A stretch of 64,000 bases of DNA. It comes from Acholeplasma sp. Lineage in GTDB: Bacteria > Bacillota_I > Bacilli_A > ML615J-28 > CAG-698. This document shows, piece after piece, positions 27,092 to 38,237 of this stretch. Where the stretch lies: contig DUOW01000011.1 in NCBI GenBank assembly GCA_012838635.1, positions 4,882-68,881 of the forward strand. The letters run 5' to 3'. The notes beneath the pieces were generated by a model, which was given only the letters and a program-made list of their open reading frames with translations, had not been told where the DNA came from and ran no database searches. Both the position numbers and the translations under genes were made by a program. Numbering within the stretch: position 1 is the stretch's first letter; each line of letters starts with the position of its first letter.

Positions 27092-27784
27092 ATGGAAAAA
27101 TTTTTACAAGAAAAGTACGAAGCTTTTAAAAAGCTTGCTGCTGAACGCTTTTCATACGATAAGATTGATTTAGAGTTTATTGTAGATTTGGTTTACAATT
27201 CACTTACTTTTGAAAGAAGAGTAGTTACTAGAGAAGATATCAAAAATATTTTGTCAGGTAAACACGAAAACTATGATGAAAATTTGGTAACTACTGCTGA
27301 AAATCATCGAAAAGCATTTTTGTTTATGGCGGATTTAGCTAAAAGAGGTGAACCACTTACAGAATCAAAATTAAAAGATTGCCATTCTATTTTAATGGAT
27401 GAGCACGGGGGAATGTATAGAACTTTTAATATTTCGATTCAAGGATCACAACATACTCCACCACCACACTACAAAATTTATGCTCGTATTGATGAATATT
27501 TTGAAGTTTTAAGAGGAGACGATCTTCCTATCAATAAAATTGCTTATAGTCACTTACAACTTGCAAAAATCCATCCCTTTTTAGATGGTAACGGAAGACT
27601 TGCTCGTCTAGTATTAAACTACTATATGTTGGTTTCTGGACTTGCTCCTATCATTATTCCTTCTGCAGATAAAGAAAAATATTTTCAATGCTTAGAAGAC
27701 TATAAAGTAAAAAAGACTACCCTTACTTTTATAAATTATTTAATTCAATTAGAAGAAGTTTCATTTGAAAAATACTTTAAATAA
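27092..27784 (+). CDS. Fic family protein (AMPylase), putative class II with N-terminal inhibitory motif
   Basis: Fic motif HPFLDGNGRLARL. An upstream SGKHEN segment fits the (S/T)xxxE(G/N) inhibitory-helix motif. 230 aa. No adjacent antitoxin ORF. Confidence 0.8.
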   Translation: MEKFLQEKYEAFKKLAAERFSYDKIDLEFIVDLVYNSLTFERRVVTREDIKNILSGKHENYDENLVTTAENHRKAFLFMADLAKRGEPLTESKLKDCHSILMDEHGGMYRTFNISIQGSQHTPPPHYKIYARIDEYFEVLRGDDLPINKIAYSHLQLAKIHPFLDGNGRLARLVLNYYMLVSGLAPIIIPSADKEKYFQCLEDYKVKKTTLTFINYLIQLEEVSFEKYFK

Positions 27785-29809: not shown

Positions 29810-29947
29810 TTATGCAGATATTTGTTTTCTGCCTTTACGTCTTCTGCTAGCTAGAACCCTTCTGCCTCCTACAGTTGACATACGAGCACGAAATCCATGT
29901 ACCTTGCTTCGTTTTCTTTTATTAGGTTGATATGTTCTTTTTGACAT
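29810..29947 (-). CDS. rpmH: 50S ribosomal protein L34
   Basis: Not in the ORF track (<60 aa). Reverse-complement translation gives [45 protein letters not shown] (45 aa). The RBS GGAGGTG lies 5 nt upstream. Confidence 0.95.
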
Positions 29948-30031
29948 AATTTCACCTCCTATGTTTTAAACCATGCCTTGCTATTATATACAAATTTTTG
30001 GCGATTGTCAATTATTTTCTAAATTTTAATT

Positions 30032-30943
30032 TTATTCACTTTCTTGTTGATAAAAGTCTTTGGGGAAAGGAATTTCAAAAAGATAGTATTTTGTCTCTTT
30101 GTTTGTTTTATCATAATATTTTACTTTGAAGTATAAAGTTTCAGGATGTGTAACTTCTGTAATGTATTCATCTGTAAGTACATGCGAATTAATTACTTCC
30201 CCGTTATGATAGTTTCCTTCAAAATGATACAAACCAACAGTAGTATAAATTTCTCCATCTTTTGTTTCTACAAATCCTTGGATATCAAACTCATAGTTTT
30301 CTACTTTTGACCTAAAATCTAAATTGAAATAATAATCTGTTTTCCCTGCTTTTTCTTTAGGAACAAAATTCAATAAAAAGATATCATTTACTGTTTCTGG
30401 ATCAGTCACTTTTTCTTTTTTATTAAAAGTTAACATTGGTTCTGTGAATTTATAAACATATTCTTCTTTTGTTGTGTTACCTTCTTCGTTAGGTTCACTT
30501 TCTTCATAAAAGTGGACCATTGAAGTAAGTGTCTTTAAATCTGCTCCAGCTTTATTAGAAGCCATAATAAAAGAATTTGTATGGCCTGTACTGTCAACAG
30601 TTGAAAAATAATAAACTTTACCATCAACATAAGAGACATTATAACTAGATCTAAATAAGTCTACTTTAATTTCTGAGGTTCCCATAACATATCCTGTAAT
30701 ATAATGCCTGTTACTCAAAGGGTTTCCTTCAACATATTGTTCTTTAGATAATCTGTTACTTATCTTAATATAATTAAAATAACCTTTTTCATTATCTACA
30801 TGTTCTTCATAAGCTGGCGCTTGAAGAATTTCTTTTTCTTTAGTAACTGCAACACCAACAACCGCAGCTGAAAGTGCGTATATTAATAGGATTGCTAAAA
30901 TTACAAAATTATTTAATTTTTCTGGAAATCTAATTATTTTCAT
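30032..30943 (-). CDS. Membrane-anchored extracytoplasmic protein of unknown function (third gene of the nuclease operon)
   Basis: Likely start MKIIRFPEKLNNFVILAILLIYALSAAVVGVAV (signal anchor) with the RBS GAAGGAAG. The ORF-track 5' extension overlaps the upstream gene and was trimmed. Confidence 0.55.
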   Translation of the reverse strand: MKIIRFPEKLNNFVILAILLIYALSAAVVGVAVTKEKEILQAPAYEEHVDNEKGYFNYIKISNRLSKEQYVEGNPLSNRHYITGYVMGTSEIKVDLFRSSYNVSYVDGKVYYFSTVDSTGHTNSFIMASNKAGADLKTLTSMVHFYEESEPNEEGNTTKEEYVYKFTEPMLTFNKKEKVTDPETVNDIFLLNFVPKEKAGKTDYYFNLDFRSKVENYEFDIQGFVETKDGEIYTTVGLYHFEGNYHNGEVINSHVLTDEYITEVTHPETLYFKVKYYDKTNKETKYYLFEIPFPKDFYQQESE

Positions 30944-31412
30944 CTTTTTTCTTCCTTCTTGTTCTTCTTTTCTTTTTTTCTTTAATTGTATAGTCTCCAA
31001 TAATAATATTTCCATTTTCTTCTTCAATAATTATAGTATCTTGTTCTAAATAAACAAATCCTGAATTAGGAAAGTTTTCAATACCTAAAATAGAAAAAGG
31101 AAATAGCTTGTTTTTACCATATTTAGTTATATTCAAAATACAAATGGTTTTTGTTTCTAAGATTATCTCATGAATAACTTTTCTTTTAGAATATAACGAT
31201 AGGTTGCCTTTTGGGGAAAAAGTATATAAAGTAATGCCTTGGCATTTAATTTTCTTTAATTTTTCTGGTTGTTCATTTTTTCTATTAAACTTACTAATTA
31301 CTTTTTCAGCCCACTTTTTACAATAAGGTTTATTAGCAACCGCATAATAGATATCTCCTATATAATAATAACCCGGTTTTAAGACTAGATCTTTCTTTTT
31401 CCTAAAACACAT
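30930..31412 (-). CDS. Small cytoplasmic protein with poly-Lys/Arg C-terminal tail (middle gene of the nuclease operon)
   Basis: 160 aa. No signal peptide. C-terminus KEKKKRRTRRKKKDENN. Its start overlaps the stop of the nuclease gene by 11 nt, suggesting translational coupling. Confidence 0.5.
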   Translation of the reverse strand: MCFRKKKDLVLKPGYYYIGDIYYAVANKPYCKKWAEKVISKFNRKNEQPEKLKKIKCQGITLYTFSPKGNLSLYSKRKVIHEIILETKTICILNITKYGKNKLFPFSILGIENFPNSGFVYLEQDTIIIEEENGNIIIGDYTIKEKKKRRTRRKKKDENN

Positions 31413-32616
31413 ATGTATACTCTTCCTTATAGTAGTAGATTGGTTTAACCCTTAATTTTGTTAGTTCATCTATCGTTTTGCCTTCCCAAATTAAGTGAAC
31501 ATATTCTGGTTTATCAATAAATGGATTGCGGTTGTTTTGTTCTTGGCTAATAATATCATTTCTTTGAAGTTCAAAATCATCAACTGGATCTTCGCGATGC
31601 CATTTTAATAATATAGGCAATAATCCCATTTTAGCTCCAGATAATTGATATGTTTCTCCAGTCAATAACTCGGCTGCTGTTTCTACTAAACTTAACTCAT
31701 TATACATTACATCCATATAAAATAAGATTCTTGCTACATCTCCTTTATGCTCATCGCCTGGAAACCAAGAAGTAGAAGTAACGGCTCCGTATGTTGTTGT
31801 TTCAGTTGTTGGATTATCAAAATATGAATTTCCTCTTGAAGAGTTTACACTTTGAACAATAGCTCTTAAATTATGTAAGTCACTAGCTTGATTTCTAGTA
31901 CTATTAGTAATTTTATCAGTCTCTGTTCCTAAACGTGATCGTGGCCAAACGTGTTCTCTTGTCCAACTAGTTCCGTCCCATGTGGCATCGATTTTATCCC
32001 CACTATAGATTGTCCAAACTTTTGTTGGGTCTTCTAAATCAGCATCAGCTCTACCTAAAATCTCTCTAGCATCTCCATAAGTTCTTGGAGTAAAGTTTTC
32101 TCTCATGATACTATTAAGTTCTCTTCTTAAGTCTTCGCCTTCTTTGTTGTTAGCAGAAGCATAATAAGTTCCTTTGGCTTCCTCAATATATATATAAAAA
32201 CCATCATCATTAGTTTCGTCATTAGGCTCTAACTTAAAAACAGTAATTTTATATGTGTTAGATATCTTACCGACTGTTATGGTAACGTCGGTCTTCCCAA
32301 CTTGATGGGCTGTCATCTTTCCCGTTTGATCAATTGATAAAATTTCTGGATTGCTTGAAGTAAAACTTGCTTCATTATACTCAGCTGCCGTTTCGGGAAT
32401 AGTCTTATATGTTATCGTTTGACTAGCGTCAACACTAATATTATATTTATCTATTCTAACTTCTAAATCCCTAACAGTTCGAGGTTCTAAATATAAAAAC
32501 CAAATAGCAAGAAAAATTAAAACTAAAACAACTAAAATTATTCCGCCAATAGATAAAGAAGATATCTTTTTAGCAGCTTTTTTTGCTATTTTTACGTTAT
32601 CTTTCTTTTTAGCCAT
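31402..32616 (-). CDS. Secreted/membrane-anchored nuclease of the Endonuclease I (EndA/Vvn) family with Big_2-like domain
   Basis: N-terminal TM anchor (ISSLSIGGIILVVLVLIFLAIWFLYL) and a Big_2-like segment (ILSIDQTGKMTAHQVGKTDVTITV). Motifs EHVWPRS, DLHNL and NSSRGN fit the Endonuclease_1 catalytic signature. Confidence 0.55.
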   Translation of the reverse strand: MAKKKDNVKIAKKAAKKISSLSIGGIILVVLVLIFLAIWFLYLEPRTVRDLEVRIDKYNISVDASQTITYKTIPETAAEYNEASFTSSNPEILSIDQTGKMTAHQVGKTDVTITVGKISNTYKITVFKLEPNDETNDDGFYIYIEEAKGTYYASANNKEGEDLRRELNSIMRENFTPRTYGDAREILGRADADLEDPTKVWTIYSGDKIDATWDGTSWTREHVWPRSRLGTETDKITNSTRNQASDLHNLRAIVQSVNSSRGNSYFDNPTTETTTYGAVTSTSWFPGDEHKGDVARILFYMDVMYNELSLVETAAELLTGETYQLSGAKMGLLPILLKWHREDPVDDFELQRNDIISQEQNNRNPFIDKPEYVHLIWEGKTIDELTKLRVKPIYYYKEEYTYVF

Positions 32617-32817
32617 GAAACCACCTCGTTATTCATTATATCATTTTTTTTGCTTTTTTCAATCTTTATAATTAACATTTCCACATTGATAAATTGTTTA
32701 TTCTTTATTAAAAAGTTTTCCTTGCTTTTTACACTGTGGAAAAGTAGATAAAAATTATTTAATTTTTATGTTTATTATTCTTTCTTTTTGTGGTATCATA
32801 TATGGGAGGAGTTCAGT
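32617..32817. promoter_or_regulatory. oriC part 1: DnaA-box cluster and dnaA promoter region
   Basis: ATTTCCACA, TTTTACACT and TGTGGAAAA (the reverse complement of TTTTCCACA) lie within 170 bp upstream of dnaA. Gene-strand bias switches here. Confidence 0.55.
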
Positions 32818-34209
32818 ATGAGTAATTTAGATATGGAAAATGCTTTAAACATTTGGCAAAAGACGCTCGAGCATTTAAAAACTGAAATAGATGACATTTC
32901 TTATAATGATTTGTTTTCTAAAACAAAAGAAGTTTTTAAAGTTAAAGATAGTACAATCTGGATTATCGTTGATAGTACTTTAACAAAATTTAGAATTGAT
33001 AAATTTTATAAAAATAGTATTAACGATTTTGCTTTAAATAATTTTGGTTGTCATTTTACTTTCATTGAATGTAAAGAAGCAGAAGAACAAAAAAGTAAAG
33101 TAGATTTAGTAAATACTACACAAACAGATATCGAAAACAGCAAAAAACCAAGATCTTTGCTCCCTGAATATTCTTTCGACAATTTCGTTATTGGAGAAAG
33201 CAATCGTTTTGCTTTTCTAGCAGCAACTAAAGTAGCTAACGATCCTGTACCAGTTTTAAACCCACTATATATCTTTGGTGGTGTTGGTTTAGGAAAAACG
33301 CATCTTATGTTTGCGGTAGGTAACGAAATCTTGCAATTTAAACCAGAAACAAATGTTGTTTACACAACAGCACAACAATATGCTCAAGATTACTTTACAG
33401 CTTCTAGTAGTAAAGATCCTAAAGCTTTTCAAAAGTTTTATGATTATTATCAATCAGCTGATGTCTTGTTAGTTGATGATATTCAGTTCTTAGAACAAAA
33501 AACAAAAACACAAGAAGAGTTTTTTAAATTATTTGAGCTTTTATATACTGAAAAGAAAAAAATGGTTGTTACATCAGATAGACCAGCTAATCAACTTCAA
33601 AACTTTATGGACAGGTTAAAGAGCAGATTAAGCTATGGTTTAGCTGTAGATATTAAAAAACCAGATAAAAACTTAAGATTAGGTATCTTACAAAAGAAAC
33701 TTCCAACTCATATCCCTAATCCAGAAGATGTTCCGATTGAAGCGTTAGAATTAATTGCTGAAATTTACGAAGATCGCAACGTTAGAGAATTAGAAGGTGC
33801 TTTGAGTAGATATATTTGGTATTGTGTGTCGGCTAATCTTCCTTTCACAAAAGAAAATGTTTATCCAATTTTAGAACCGTTAGTTAAAGGTATGGGTAAA
33901 GAAGGAGCTCCGGCCGACGTTAAGGTAAGAGATATAAAAGAATTGGTAGCTAGTTATTATCAAGTTTCGGTTTCTGAATTAGAATCTGAATCAAGAAAAG
34001 CAAAAATTGTTTTCGCAAGACAAATGGCTATTTATTTAATTAGAACTCTTTATGACTTACCATTAAAACAAATAGGTAGTTATTTCGGAAATAGAGATCA
34101 TGCCACAGTATCTTATTCAATCGATAAAATTGAAAAAGATATGAAGCAAAATAAAGGCATAAAACAAGATATTATATATCTAACTCATAAAATTCAAGGT
34201 GAAAAATAA
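32818..34209 (+). CDS. dnaA: Chromosomal replication initiator DnaA
   Basis: AAA+ Walker A GGVGLGKTHL, box VII, and a C-terminal DNA-binding helix (SRKAKIVFARQMAIYL...GNRDHATV). The start was set at the ATG at 32818, which has a GGGAGG RBS. Confidence 0.95.
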   Translation: MSNLDMENALNIWQKTLEHLKTEIDDISYNDLFSKTKEVFKVKDSTIWIIVDSTLTKFRIDKFYKNSINDFALNNFGCHFTFIECKEAEEQKSKVDLVNTTQTDIENSKKPRSLLPEYSFDNFVIGESNRFAFLAATKVANDPVPVLNPLYIFGGVGLGKTHLMFAVGNEILQFKPETNVVYTTAQQYAQDYFTASSSKDPKAFQKFYDYYQSADVLLVDDIQFLEQKTKTQEEFFKLFELLYTEKKKMVVTSDRPANQLQNFMDRLKSRLSYGLAVDIKKPDKNLRLGILQKKLPTHIPNPEDVPIEALELIAEIYEDRNVRELEGALSRYIWYCVSANLPFTKENVYPILEPLVKGMGKEGAPADVKVRDIKELVASYYQVSVSELESESRKAKIVFARQMAIYLIRTLYDLPLKQIGSYFGNRDHATVSYSIDKIEKDMKQNKGIKQDIIYLTHKIQGEK

Positions 34210-35424: not shown

Positions 35425-35452
35425 AAAAGAGGTGTAATAACCTCTTTTATTT
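35425..35452. terminator. Bidirectional terminator between dnaN and parA-like gene
   Basis: Hairpin AAGAGGT-GTAATAA-CCTCTT flanked by an A-run and a T-run. Confidence 0.55.
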
Positions 35453-36331
35453 TTTCTTTTTTAAGTTTAAAACAACTTTTTCTTGCGGCTGTTCTTGAGC
35501 AGCTGCTTTTTTACTTAATTTCTCTTCATGTTCGTCTACACTTTTAAAGATCCCTAACAATTCTTTTCTTACTTTTAAAGTTTCGGTCAAATCATAACGA
35601 GTTTCAAATACTTCATTTTTGTCAAAAGGAGTCTTACCTTGAGTTTGAATGTTTTGAATTGTTGATTTCTCTGAAAAATAAGGCAATATTAAAGCGTTTA
35701 ATCCCATTGTTCTTGAAAATTCTTTGGCTTGTTTATCCAATGTTTGTAAAGAATCTTTAGGAGCTCTTCTATTTGCAATAAATTTATTAGGTAAAATGTA
35801 TTGAATCTTACTAATAGGAATGTCTTGGTCCACAAAAAACTGGATAGTATTAATAAACCCATCAATCCCCATACTATCTAAACTAATAATTAAGATAATT
35901 CTATCACTATAATCCAACAAAACTTCTGTAGCTCTACAGCTAGAAGGTGGGAAATCAAGCAAAACATAGTCGAAATTCTCGTTATAGACATCAATAATGT
36001 TAAATAAGATCTTTTCTGTAGGTCTTTTTGTAATTAATTCTGTAGATAAAGCATCTGTATTTAAAGTTTTTATTAAATATAAGTTTTCTCTTACTTCATG
36101 TAATACTTCATCAAACGTCCTTTGTCCTACCATTAGGTACTCTAAATAGTCATCATTTCTTGCTGTAACAAGATCTTGGCGTCCAAAAAGAGTAAAAATA
36201 CTATTTTGATCATCAATACTGATGACTAAAACAGTCTTTTTCTTTACTTCTGTTAAATAATGAGCTAAATAACCAATAAACGTTGTTTTACCAACGCCAC
36301 CTTTCTTACAATATGTCGAAATAATGGCCAT
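35447..36331 (-). CDS. parA: ParA/Soj-type partition ATPase (deviant Walker A)
   Basis: KGGVGKTT deviant Walker A at residues 9 to 16. 294 aa. Encoded immediately after a small RHH gene and next to iteron arrays. No parB is present in the window. Confidence 0.8.
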   Translation of the reverse strand: MAIISTYCKKGGVGKTTFIGYLAHYLTEVKKKTVLVISIDDQNSIFTLFGRQDLVTARNDDYLEYLMVGQRTFDEVLHEVRENLYLIKTLNTDALSTELITKRPTEKILFNIIDVYNENFDYVLLDFPPSSCRATEVLLDYSDRIILIISLDSMGIDGFINTIQFFVDQDIPISKIQYILPNKFIANRRAPKDSLQTLDKQAKEFSRTMGLNALILPYFSEKSTIQNIQTQGKTPFDKNEVFETRYDLTETLKVRKELLGIFKSVDEHEEKLSKKAAAQEQPQEKVVLNLKKKK

Positions 36332-36334
36332 ATT

Positions 36335-36679
36335 CTATAATTTAACTCCCATTAATCGTAAATGACGTATAACAGCCTCTTCTACAAACTCAGAAAAAGT
36401 AACTCCTTGCTTCATTGCAGCTATTTTTGCCTCAGATCTAACAATGTGAGCCATAGTTGCAGTGTATTTTACCTTTTTATTCCCTCCATATACGTCATAA
36501 ATCTCATCTTTTTTCGATTTAGTAGGGGTTACTGTCCTAGAAACAGGTTCTTTTTGATAAACTACAGGTTCTTCAACAACTGGTTCTGATAGAGTCTCTT
36601 CCTTAATAATTTCTGCTACATTTACAGTTTTATTTAGGCCCGATAAAGGACTTTGGCCTCTTTTTTTAATTTTTCCCAT
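36335..36679 (-). CDS. Small ribbon-helix-helix DNA-binding protein (ParG/omega-like centromere-binding candidate)
   Basis: 114 aa. A disordered basic N-terminus. The C-terminal KVKYTATMAHIVRSEAKIAAMKQGVTFSEFVEEAVIRHL fits a beta-strand, helix, helix RHH fold. Separated from parA by a 3-nt gap. Confidence 0.6.
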   Translation of the reverse strand: MGKIKKRGQSPLSGLNKTVNVAEIIKEETLSEPVVEEPVVYQKEPVSRTVTPTKSKKDEIYDVYGGNKKVKYTATMAHIVRSEAKIAAMKQGVTFSEFVEEAVIRHLRLMGVKL

Positions 36680-36720
36680 CTTTTTTCACTCCTTTTTCTT
36701 ATAAAAATCACAATTTTAGT

Positions 36721-36840
36721 CAAAAACCATAAAAACATTTATACATTTTTACACAAAACCTTATAACCATTTATATGTTTTTACATTTATACACAAAACC
36801 ACATTTACATTTATACACTTATACATAAAAACATACTTTT
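36721..36840. repeat. Promoter-proximal iteron array: 4 to 5 direct copies of CATTTATACA(C/T) with two ACACAAAACC half-sites
   Basis: Copies at 36736, 36768 (variant), 36784, 36808 and 36818 (extended to TATACATAAAAACATAC). They sit 40 to 160 bp upstream of the RHH-parA operon start. Confidence 0.7.
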
Positions 36841-37835
36841 TTAAGGTCATTTTTTAGGCGATTTTAAGCTTTTAAAACTCGTTTTTTCCTGAATTTTAAA
36901 AATATTGCTTCCTAAAAAAGGGAAATATTTTTTAGCGCTCAAAAAAACATTTTGAATTTAAATTAAGCTAGATTTTTGACCCCCAGTAAAGTATTTATTA
37001 AGGCCGATTCTTAAAAACGCTTAAAAACGAAATTTGAAAGGTTGCAAAAAACTGTTTTTTGCCATATACAGGGGTTTTAAGGCCTTTTAAAAAGACAAAT
37101 ATACATAAAACCATACAGCTGTATATATGGTTTTATGGGTATACATAAAACCATATTAAGAAATGTTGGTTAAAAACAAATTTTTTGTTTTTTTTGGTCT
37201 TTTATTGAGACTATTATACACAATAAAAACATAAAAAGCAATACATAAAGCCATAAAAATGCAAAAAAAAGCACTTTTTATAGCTTTAAAAACGAGTATT
37301 TTCCGGATCTGACGTTTAATACAACAAAAACAACCAAATAAGAGTTGAAATAAGGCTAAAATCAGAAGAAAAACAATATAAATAAAGCTAAAAAGTTAGA
37401 AAATACGCCAGTTTAAGCGTTAGAAAAACCATAAAACTGAAAAACAAACATGATTTTGGCCTTAATAATAAAGAAAACATAATATTTTCAGCGTTTTAAG
37501 GTCCATTTATACATAAAACCATACACAAAAGAGCATTAAATTATGCTTTTGGAAGTAAAAAAACAGGTTTATATGTAAAATGGTTAATAAAAGGGTAAAA
37601 TTATATATTTAATGACCTTAAAATAAGAAATATACATAAAACCATACTCAGAAAAGCTAAAATGTTATGCTTTTTAAAGACGTAAAATAAGAATTTAACA
37701 TAATACACACAATTAATGGACGATAATTTACTTTTTTCAAGAATAAAACATCTTTATATCCAAAATCATACCCAACGAAAGATCCCAAACACCAATTAAC
37801 AACAACAAAAACGAAGTTTATACATAAAACCATAC
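36821..37835. repeat. Dispersed 17-mer family TATACATAAAACCATAC (5 exact + 2 degenerate copies) in a 1.5-kb non-coding island
   Basis: Exact copies at 37100..37116, 37140..37155, 37508..37524, 37631..37647 and 37819..37835. Degenerate copies at 36821..36836 and 37241..37255. An inverted copy lies at 37126..37140. No ORF of 60 aa or longer spans the region. Confidence 0.8.
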
Positions 37836-38237
37836 AGCTTCTTTTAAATAAAAGTAGGAAAACTAAGCTTTAATACAAGATTTGTTTCACTTATTGGGTT
37901 CTATATTCTATATTATTCCTTTTAATGGTTAAATTATCTATTAATTATTCATAAAAGCAGTTATAAACCATCTTTTTGTGTTTTATATTTCAACTTAAAC
38001 CATTTTTAAATAAAAAAGGCAAATAAAACAAGATATTGTTAAAAAACGCAACTAAAACGAAAATAAACGAGTTTTTTGGCTCAATAAATATAATTGGAAA
38101 GATTTTAATAAAAGTCTTTAAAAATAAGCGAAAATGTGGTATAATATCTATGAATTATTCAGGAATTAAAAATGGTTCAAAAGTTTATTTAATAGACCGT
38201 TTTATCCGTTTATTTATAAAAGATAATGGAGAAAGAG

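Follow-up and report, generated by a model that had tools for sequence, protein, structure and literature searches.

What brings a nuclease gene and two companion genes between rpmH and dnaA, and what might their products do there? The question is raised by a 64,000-nucleotide stretch of an Acholeplasma sp. draft genome (GCA_012838635.1, contig DUOW01000011.1, positions 4,882 to 68,881; we call this whole stretch the window), in which the rpmH-dnaA interval holds three minus-strand genes, one for a 404-amino-acid (404-aa) nuclease and two for proteins of 160 and 303 aa, here named p160 and p303. Our comparisons place p160, by sequence, as a diverged member of an uncharacterized nuclease-linked family and not as an isolated orphan, which is the new result of this analysis, and they suggest that this family may act on the nucleases it accompanies. 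The operon and its flanks are laid out as follows.

29947..29810, minus strand: rpmH, flanking the operon on one side
30032..30943, minus strand: p303 gene, 303 aa, with an N-terminal hydrophobic helix; 14-nucleotide (nt) overlap with the p160 gene
30930..31412, minus strand: p160 gene, 160 aa, predicted cytoplasmic, basic; 11-nt overlap with the nuclease gene
31402..32616, minus strand: nuclease gene, 404 aa, with a predicted transmembrane (TM) anchor, Big_2 and Endonuclease_1
32818..34209, plus strand: dnaA, the other flank of the operon

The 404-aa protein is a predicted Endonuclease I-family nuclease of the His-Me finger type with an intact active-site signature. It matches Pfam Endonuclease_1 (PF04231) along essentially the whole profile (residues 160-371, profile positions 2-235 of 235; E = 6.9e-34, 118.1 bits against a cut-off of 25) and carries a Big_2 domain (PF02368; residues 59-124, E = 7.5e-10), and its nearest solved structures are the Vibrio vulnificus nuclease Vvn (1OUP) and Vibrio endonucleases I. 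The motifs EHVWP (residues 221-225), DLHNL (246-250) and SRGN (260-263) can all be located, and an alignment of 14 homologues shows no variation at R220-E221-H222-V223-W224, R228, H248-N249-L250 and N258. Two of these residues, R228 and N258, fall opposite Vvn chain positions 81 and 109, which we take to be Arg99 and Asn127 on an 18-residue signal-peptide offset; E221 and H222 were equated with Vvn Glu79 and His80 by the EHV(V/W)P motif alone, the HMMER alignment having stopped short of them. The N-terminus is basic and is followed by one hydrophobic segment (residues 23-41; Kyte-Doolittle, 19-residue window, peak 3.15), a profile pointing to a signal anchor of N-in orientation, which would place Big_2 and the nuclease domain outside the cell.

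More than 1,200 homologues of the nuclease were found at E ≤ 1e-10, the named ones almost all from Acholeplasmataceae or related Bacilli. The closest are "endonuclease I" proteins of about 325 aa from Acholeplasmataceae and Paracholeplasma, and a TM anchor or a lipobox is present in all eight of the homologues inspected; a phage search with the nuclease domain returned four records, which were uninformative. In Paracholeplasma vituli and P. morum, the nuclease gene follows a Phosphodiest (PF01663) gene and has NUDIX and HAD-hydrolase genes nearby, a neighborhood that fits a role in the breakdown of extracellular nucleic acids. Membrane nucleases of mycoplasmas serve nucleotide salvage (PMC11729948). 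From these data we infer nuclease activity and a scavenging role: the window protein would be a surface-exposed, sugar-non-specific, Mg2+-dependent His-Me finger enzyme, tethered to the membrane by its N-terminal signal anchor and kept away from it by Big_2, and most probably it would break down DNA and RNA outside the cell and so supply nucleotide salvage. The closest homologue outside the window clade, a 522-aa protein (P0012; L006, 3836-5404), has two tandem Endonuclease_1 domains behind a single TM anchor, and an overlapping gene for a 128-aa partner still follows it.

That partner is one of a recurrent kind. Directly behind the Endonuclease_1 gene at eight sampled loci (L005, L006, L008, L009, L016, L017, L018, and L019) lies a gene for a protein of 127 to 130 aa without a Pfam match; L010 and L012 show this arrangement too but nearly duplicate L009 and stand outside this count. 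These small proteins are homologues of each other. The partner start overlaps the nuclease stop by 4 to 20 nt at seven of these loci and is separated from it by a 4-nt gap at the remaining one, and the nuclease/partner pair thus occurs in the window clade (three species) and at 8 further sampled loci. Because no hydrophobic segment is found in any member, the partner family is predicted to be cytoplasmic.

By its sequence, p160 is a diverged member of this small-partner family, a link reached only through synteny and then profile-profile comparison. BLASTP of p160 against the L006 partner gives E = 4e-5 over 127 residues, and hhalign connects the p160 alignment with five partners (96.2%, E = 2.6e-9) and with 11 family members (96.5%, E = 8.1e-10, score 60.6, 120 columns, collinear end to end). 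No control scored above 16.2 or had an E below 0.06, whether the alignment was reversed, column-shuffled (20 versions) or replaced by that of the unrelated p303. The positions invariant across the 11 members are L7, Y12, D16, G63-D64-G65, D73, G75, and T128, and p160 and its orthologues retain the N-terminal LKPGYYYIGD of the family motif L..Y...D. Direct searches give p160 the look of an orphan: it has no match in Pfam, NCBIfam, PHROGs, PADLOC, or the PDB, its homologues among 5.8 billion sequences form only five clusters (each at 60% identity or more), and an HMMER profile of its orthologues run against 1.84 billion representatives recovered nothing beyond its own cluster and a single tail fragment of 52 aa. 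Likewise, a direct scan of p160 with the phrog_20074 model gave no match at E ≤ 0.1, and a second, canonical copy of the nuclease/partner pair was not found within the 64-kb window.

The phage family phrog_20074 matches the stand-alone members L014 (4.6e-22) and L013 (8.1e-20), the L006 partner (4.6e-9) and the L009 and L005 partners (about 1e-4). With tblastn, relatives of the partner family were found in 70 phage records, which include T4-like Acinetobacter phages, Prevotella Lak megaphages, and Aeromonas, Stenotrophomonas, Acidovorax, and Variovorax phages, and two large plasmids of Clostridium botulinum carry relatives as well; a metagenome scan with the partner alignment returned three loci only. 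The partner family has no relative in Pfam, NCBIfam, PADLOC, or the PDB, and the partner-family and p160 profiles found nothing relevant among all PDB sequences at E ≤ 10. An identity with DUF4241 (PF14025) was considered and rejected (L005 partner alone, E = 0.14, 12.7 bits against a cut-off of 27), and a literature search for DUF4241 or PF14025 found nothing. Among the stand-alone members, Acinetobacter phage Lazarus orf039 (L015, 3995-4405) ends in a polyacidic tail, DEDSDEDDDEDYFD, where the tail of p160 is polybasic, and is surrounded by a run of small hypothetical genes, with genes for a dCTP pyrophosphatase and an O-acetyl-ADP-ribose deacetylase close by. Another member, of 146 aa, stands alone in a small phage-like contig (L014, 11-2123) beside a GroES-like protein (sub-threshold Cpn10 match), a DUF2204 nucleotidyltransferase, and an ORF of 153 aa, HNH-like as judged by eye.

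The host is a wall-less Acholeplasmataceae-type bacterium whose species turns up again in metagenomes from biogas fermenters and similar sources. GC makes up about 30% of the window, and the genetic code is the standard one, with open reading frames (ORFs) of at least 100 aa tiling all of it under table 11, and its DnaA is 92% identical to that of two metagenome-assembled genomes labelled Acholeplasmataceae bacterium and Bacilli bacterium. The operon is syntenic in two sister species (L001 and L002), with protein identities to the window of 74% for the nuclease, 66-70% for p160 and 74-75% for p303, and the flanking proteins are better kept (DnaA 92%, DnaN 96%, RpmH 93%). Ratios of nonsynonymous to synonymous substitution rates (dN/dS; Nei-Gojobori, against the two sister species) are 0.17-0.19 for the nuclease, 0.23-0.26 for p160 and 0.13-0.15 for p303, all within the range of rnpA, yidC, and jag; purifying selection acts on all three genes. 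The same 404/160/303 gene calls recur in 10 independent assemblies carrying an identical RpmH, the exception being one assembly of 2.3x coverage with several broken genes. In that assembly of the same species (L024, 4006-4916), p303 is split into pieces of 60 and 217 aa and dnaA, jag, and mnmE are likewise truncated, and the breaks are most likely assembly error rather than biology. Given the dN/dS values and the matching calls in independent assemblies, the three are real genes and not chance ORFs.

Hydropathy separates p160 from its neighbors: it has no hydrophobic segment (Kyte-Doolittle), and its basic tail, KRRTRRKKK, is invariant across six orthologues (pI 9.7 for the whole protein, 9.4 without the tail). 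A single hydrophobic segment is found in p303 (residues 13-31, Kyte-Doolittle), and its N-terminal helix could be an anchor or a cleavable signal. The sequence-only reading of this operon had described a membrane-anchored Endonuclease I-family nuclease with EHVWP, DLHNL, and SRGN motifs and a Big_2 domain, a 160-aa cytoplasmic protein with a poly-K/R tail overlapping it by 11 nt, and a membrane-anchored extracytoplasmic third protein. The full-length Pfam match, motifs and hydropathy agree with the first of these descriptions, the coordinates, lack of a hydrophobic segment and KRRTRRKKK tail with the second, and the p303 segment with the third, for which an anchor and a cleavable signal are both compatible. 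That reading had also named the possibility that p160 is a fragment created by a frameshift of the downstream gene. We rejected p160 as a frameshift fragment of, or a fusion with, p303, because p160 is homologous to free-standing proteins of 127 to 130 aa and because in L001, where a purine-run indel shifts the p160/p303 phase to an ATGA overlap, both ORFs remain intact. The start of p303 itself is the ATG at 30943, which gives 303 aa, rather than the TTG at 31027.

Why would a cytoplasmic protein be coupled to an exported nuclease? Periplasmic endonuclease I is thought to be inactive in the reducing cytoplasm, and disulfides formed after export switch the enzyme on (PMC5714182). There is no cysteine in the 404-aa nuclease, and the nuclease domains at nine partner-bearing comparison loci have 0 to 2 each; therefore the disulfide safety switch of endonuclease I would be unusable here. 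Since that switch is unavailable to these nucleases, our best reading, to which we give somewhat less than an even chance, is that the partner is a cytoplasmic inhibitor of the nuclease. The coupled partner would bind and silence nuclease that has folded in the cytoplasm before export, and would in this way take the place of the disulfide switch for cysteine-free enzymes. The conserved, usually overlapping pairing is, on gene order, the genomic signature expected of a nuclease/inhibitor pair, and the inhibitor reading gains support from the match between a coupled nuclease and small cytoplasmic protein and the arrangement in Bacillus subtilis, where nucA adjoins the gene of the inhibitor Nin (PMC5758888). 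In the window clade, the module would then have been relocated to the rpmH-dnaA junction, with a strongly diverged p160 and an added clade-specific, exported, beta-rich p303.

The idea of nuclease/immunity logic had been raised in the sequence-only reading, and it stands in so far as an overlapping pair is conserved across Acholeplasmataceae-type genomes; what has not carried over is any similarity to known inhibitors, and p160 is atypical of its family. Toxin/antitoxin logic, raised beside it, does not suit the locus in its classical form, which fits poorly with an exported, membrane-anchored enzyme. A wider version of the same thought would make the operon an interbacterial effector/immunity module of the polymorphic-toxin kind, or a toxin-antitoxin module, with p160 as immunity protein or antitoxin. 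The gene order (nuclease first, small coupled cytoplasmic protein second) and the fast evolution of the partner are as such a module would have them, and nuclease effector/immunity pairs are known in Bacillota (PMC13556189). The nuclease, however, lacks any delivery, LXG, Rhs, or T7SS-type domain and has a plain signal anchor instead, its export contrasts with the cytoplasmic site of action of a type II toxin, and its more than 1,200 homologues (E ≤ 1e-10) belong, where named, almost entirely to Acholeplasmataceae and related Bacilli. The pair also keeps one stable chromosomal context, after Peptidase_M50, at five sampled loci, no orphan immunity arrays were seen, and neither the three operon proteins nor the partner family has a PADLOC match. 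We regard an effector or toxin-antitoxin role as the least probable of the readings considered, and very improbable in itself.

Several observations weigh against an inhibitor. The partner is absent from the flanks at three sampled nuclease loci (P. vituli, P. morum, and L011), which argues that it is not obligatory, and the members in phages, plasmids, and small phage-like contigs sit among small hypothetical genes without an Endonuclease_1 neighbor. Co-translational membrane insertion alone could make an inhibitor unnecessary, and the Asp/Gly-rich residues invariant in the family could equally mark an enzyme or ligand site. The window protein is itself a poor example of its family: where the family has GGDG and DTG, p160 and its orthologues read PKGNLSLYSKRKV and ETK, p160 is basic whereas most canonical partners are acidic (seven of eight, pI 4.8-5.7; the L016 partner has pI 8.7), and it is 22% identical to canonical partners, which are 44% identical among themselves. 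For comparison, identity between the window nuclease domain and canonical ones is 50%, against 57% among the canonical domains. On these identities, the partner evolved disproportionately fast in the window clade while under purifying selection. With GDG and DxG gone, the charge basic, and the divergence about twice that of the nuclease, p160 may have lost the function of its family; lacking these family-invariant residues, it may no longer do the family's job. Structure prediction does not help, because the AlphaFold2 models are of low confidence (pLDDT 42 for p160, from a 6-sequence alignment; pLDDT 40 for p303) and unusable for judging binding.

Much of this would be accommodated if the partner were a cytoplasmic protein with some other linked role, such as an enzyme or a nucleic-acid- or oligonucleotide-binding factor acting on imported breakdown products, a helper of export or insertion, or a regulator of expression. 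The Asp/Gly-rich invariants (D16, GDG 63-65, D73, and G75) suit a metal or substrate site, and the family members without a nuclease neighbor in phages and plasmids, together with the three loci that have the nuclease and no partner, count in favor of such a role. In the window clade, a basic p160 (pI 9.7) with its invariant polybasic KRRTRRKKK tail would have RNA, DNA, or anionic membrane lipids as its ligands. Set against this, no enzyme or nucleic-acid-binding family was matched in Pfam, NCBIfam, or the PDB, and p160 lacks the candidate site residues, yet its purifying selection and its coupling to the nuclease persist. The tight start/stop overlap between nuclease and partner genes also tells against it, such overlap being typical of genes for proteins needed in fixed proportion. 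We consider a linked role other than inhibition possible and less probable than inhibition of the nuclease, which we continue to prefer.

The third gene is confined to the window clade as far as the sequences searched go: homologues of p303 among 5.8 billion sequences form only three clusters, all in that clade, and p303 has no match in Pfam, NCBIfam, PHROG, PADLOC, or the PDB. Its ectodomain is acidic and without cysteine, and the AlphaFold2 model (4-sequence alignment) places a TM helix at residues 12-35 followed by all-beta strands, at the low confidence given above. Co-transcription and coupling suggest that p303 is an accessory of the surface nuclease. Third genes that follow the pair at other loci (L009, 1836-2159; L010, 1832-2167; L018, 3979-4302) are unrelated to p303; they encode acidic proteins of 107 to 111 aa without a Pfam match, in a lineage with a lipoprotein or Big_2 nuclease.

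An exported protein beside a surface nuclease also brings DNA uptake to mind, and the module could be read as a competence nuclease system like S. pneumoniae EndA or B. subtilis NucA/Nin, with p303 as a surface DNA receptor or accessory. The nuclease is membrane anchored and surface exposed by prediction, p303 is exported and co-transcribed by prediction, EndA of Streptococcus pneumoniae is a membrane-attached DNA-entry nuclease (PMC3025545), and nucA adjoins nin (PMC5758888). On the other side, com genes are absent from the surroundings of the module, both in the window and at every sampled locus, p303 is absent outside the window clade, and periplasmic Endonuclease I enzymes have been reported to lower, not raise, transformation (PMC5714182). 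A competence role is therefore improbable in our estimate, and nucleotide salvage by a nuclease held in check by its partner is the reading we carry forward.

How the module came to lie at the rpmH-dnaA junction can be approached from its signals and its surroundings. The relevant features are as follows.

29983..30011, minus strand: rpmH promoter, TTGACA, 17 nt, TATAAT; 12 of 12 positions; 20 nt past the p303 stop
32635..32662, minus strand: operon promoter-like site, TTGAAA, 16 nt, TG-TATAAT; 11 of 12 positions, extended -10; a consensus match only
32617..32817, no strand: divergent spacer between the nuclease gene and dnaA, 201 bp, with two inverted TTTCCACA DnaA-box-like sites

The nuclease ATG has a GAGGTG ribosome-binding site 7 nt upstream, and the minus strand between 30032 and 29947 showed nothing resembling a terminator. 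Judged from these sites, the operon can be transcribed from its own promoter, with read-through into rpmH possible. The 201-bp spacer has one strict DnaA box (32735-32743) and a second site, ATTTCCACA, read from the sequence; across the whole window, the count of strict DnaA boxes is not above chance. The dnaA-dnaN spacer is 72 bp. The cumulative GC skew has its minimum near 38 kb of the window, where an ORF-free, AT-rich (about 25% GC) stretch of 1.5 kb (36680-38225) carries repeated TTATACA-type units. A cluster of TTTATACA(C/T) units occupies 36723-36835, at least five dispersed TATACATAAAACCATAC copies are found in the same ORF-free stretch, and Rfam gave no match there at the gathering threshold. 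Next to the stretch on the minus strand are genes for a ParA-like ATPase (36331..35447) and for a 114-aa protein with a ribbon-helix-helix-like C-terminus (36679..36335), and the two lie between dnaN and recF-like, gyrB-sized, and gyrA-sized ORFs that are named here by size and order only. The 1.5-kb stretch looks like a replication origin, a partition centromere, or both, and the origin is probably at about 36.7-38.2 kb, some 5 kb away and outside the 201-bp spacer.

The sequence-only reading had called placement inside the rpmH-dnaA origin junction unusual. The placement is real and clade specific; the insertion need not lie within oriC, because GC skew and DnaA-box-like repeats put the likely origin at 36.7-38.2 kb. 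A scan of genome contigs yielded no more than the two sister species and an alphaproteobacterium that is unrelated. Elsewhere, in five of the genomes sampled, the pair follows a Peptidase_M50 gene and has ABC-transporter genes or CSD and Fic genes behind it, which argues that the rpmH-dnaA position is derived and specific to a clade of at least three species. No homologues of CSD, CvfB, or Peptidase_M50 were found in the window. A Fic-domain gene does occur there (27092-27784, plus strand), is 36-37% identical to the Fic genes situated several genes downstream of the pair in L005, L008, and L017, and may be a remnant of the ancestral neighborhood.

If the partner is an inhibitor, a coupled partner of a cysteine-free Endonuclease I would be a second solution beside disulfide-dependent activation, and an uncharacterized family of jumbo and T4-like phages would gain a function, possibly as a counter-defense or anti-nuclease factor. 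An inhibitor of EndA-type enzymes would also be of practical use, since EndA contamination degrades plasmid preparations. At its widest, the idea is that the 127- to 130-aa, phrog_20074-like family forms an unrecognized class of inhibitors of Endonuclease I-type His-Me finger nucleases, serving self-protection in wall-less Bacillota and acting as an anti-nuclease early protein in phages, with the window copy remodelled into a basic protein of changed function. The phages concerned would be T4-like Acinetobacter phages (the polyacidic tail of the Lazarus protein being DNA-mimic-like) and Aeromonas, Stenotrophomonas, and Prevotella (Lak) phages, whose hosts have endonuclease I. We hold this wider proposal to be doubtful. 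Whatever the function, p160 of the window would show how far a partner can diverge once its module moves and gains a new third gene.

Among known systems, the nuclease stands closest to Endonuclease I (E. coli EndA, Vvn, and Aeromonas Dns; PF04231; His-Me finger group 9, PMC5714182), with which it shares the full length of the catalytic domain. Export and the E-H, R, and N active-site residues are common to both by prediction. The classical enzymes are disulfide dependent (PMC5714182), whereas the window nuclease is without cysteine. Compared with them, it adds a TM tether, a Big_2 spacer, and a conserved cytoplasmic partner gene. To our knowledge, no protein partner or inhibitor is known for the classical enzymes EndA, Vvn, and Dns, and we found none in the literature. 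Membrane nucleases of Mycoplasma (e.g., MnuA) are likewise surface or membrane nucleases of wall-less bacteria that serve nucleotide salvage; they are lipoproteins of other protein families, and no coupled cytoplasmic partner is described for them in PMC11729948. On the partner side, phrog_20074 is a phage family without an assigned function. Canonical partners match it and p160 joins it by profile-profile comparison alone; its phage members stand alone, and p160 lacks their GDG and DxG motifs.

The nearest parallel in arrangement is B. subtilis NucA-Nin, in which the gene of an exported non-specific nuclease likewise adjoins that of a small cytoplasmic protein. NucA is membrane associated, nin lies downstream of nucA, and Nin has about 130 aa. 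NucA belongs to another nuclease family (the NucA/NucB glutamate-dependent form within the beta-beta-alpha-metal type) than the window Endonuclease I. Nin inhibits both NucA and NucB, and its structure is in the PDB as 4MQD (PMC5758888). The partner family has no sequence similarity at E ≤ 10 to any PDB chain, 4MQD among them. Structures of NuiA, barstar, and the immunity proteins of colicins are likewise in the PDB. No sequence relationship connects the window pair with Anabaena NucA-NuiA, barnase-barstar, or colicin DNase-Im, whose nuclease folds or families differ from it; what the window pair would share with all three is the proposed logic, in which a dedicated small protein neutralizes a potentially self-toxic exported nuclease inside its producer.

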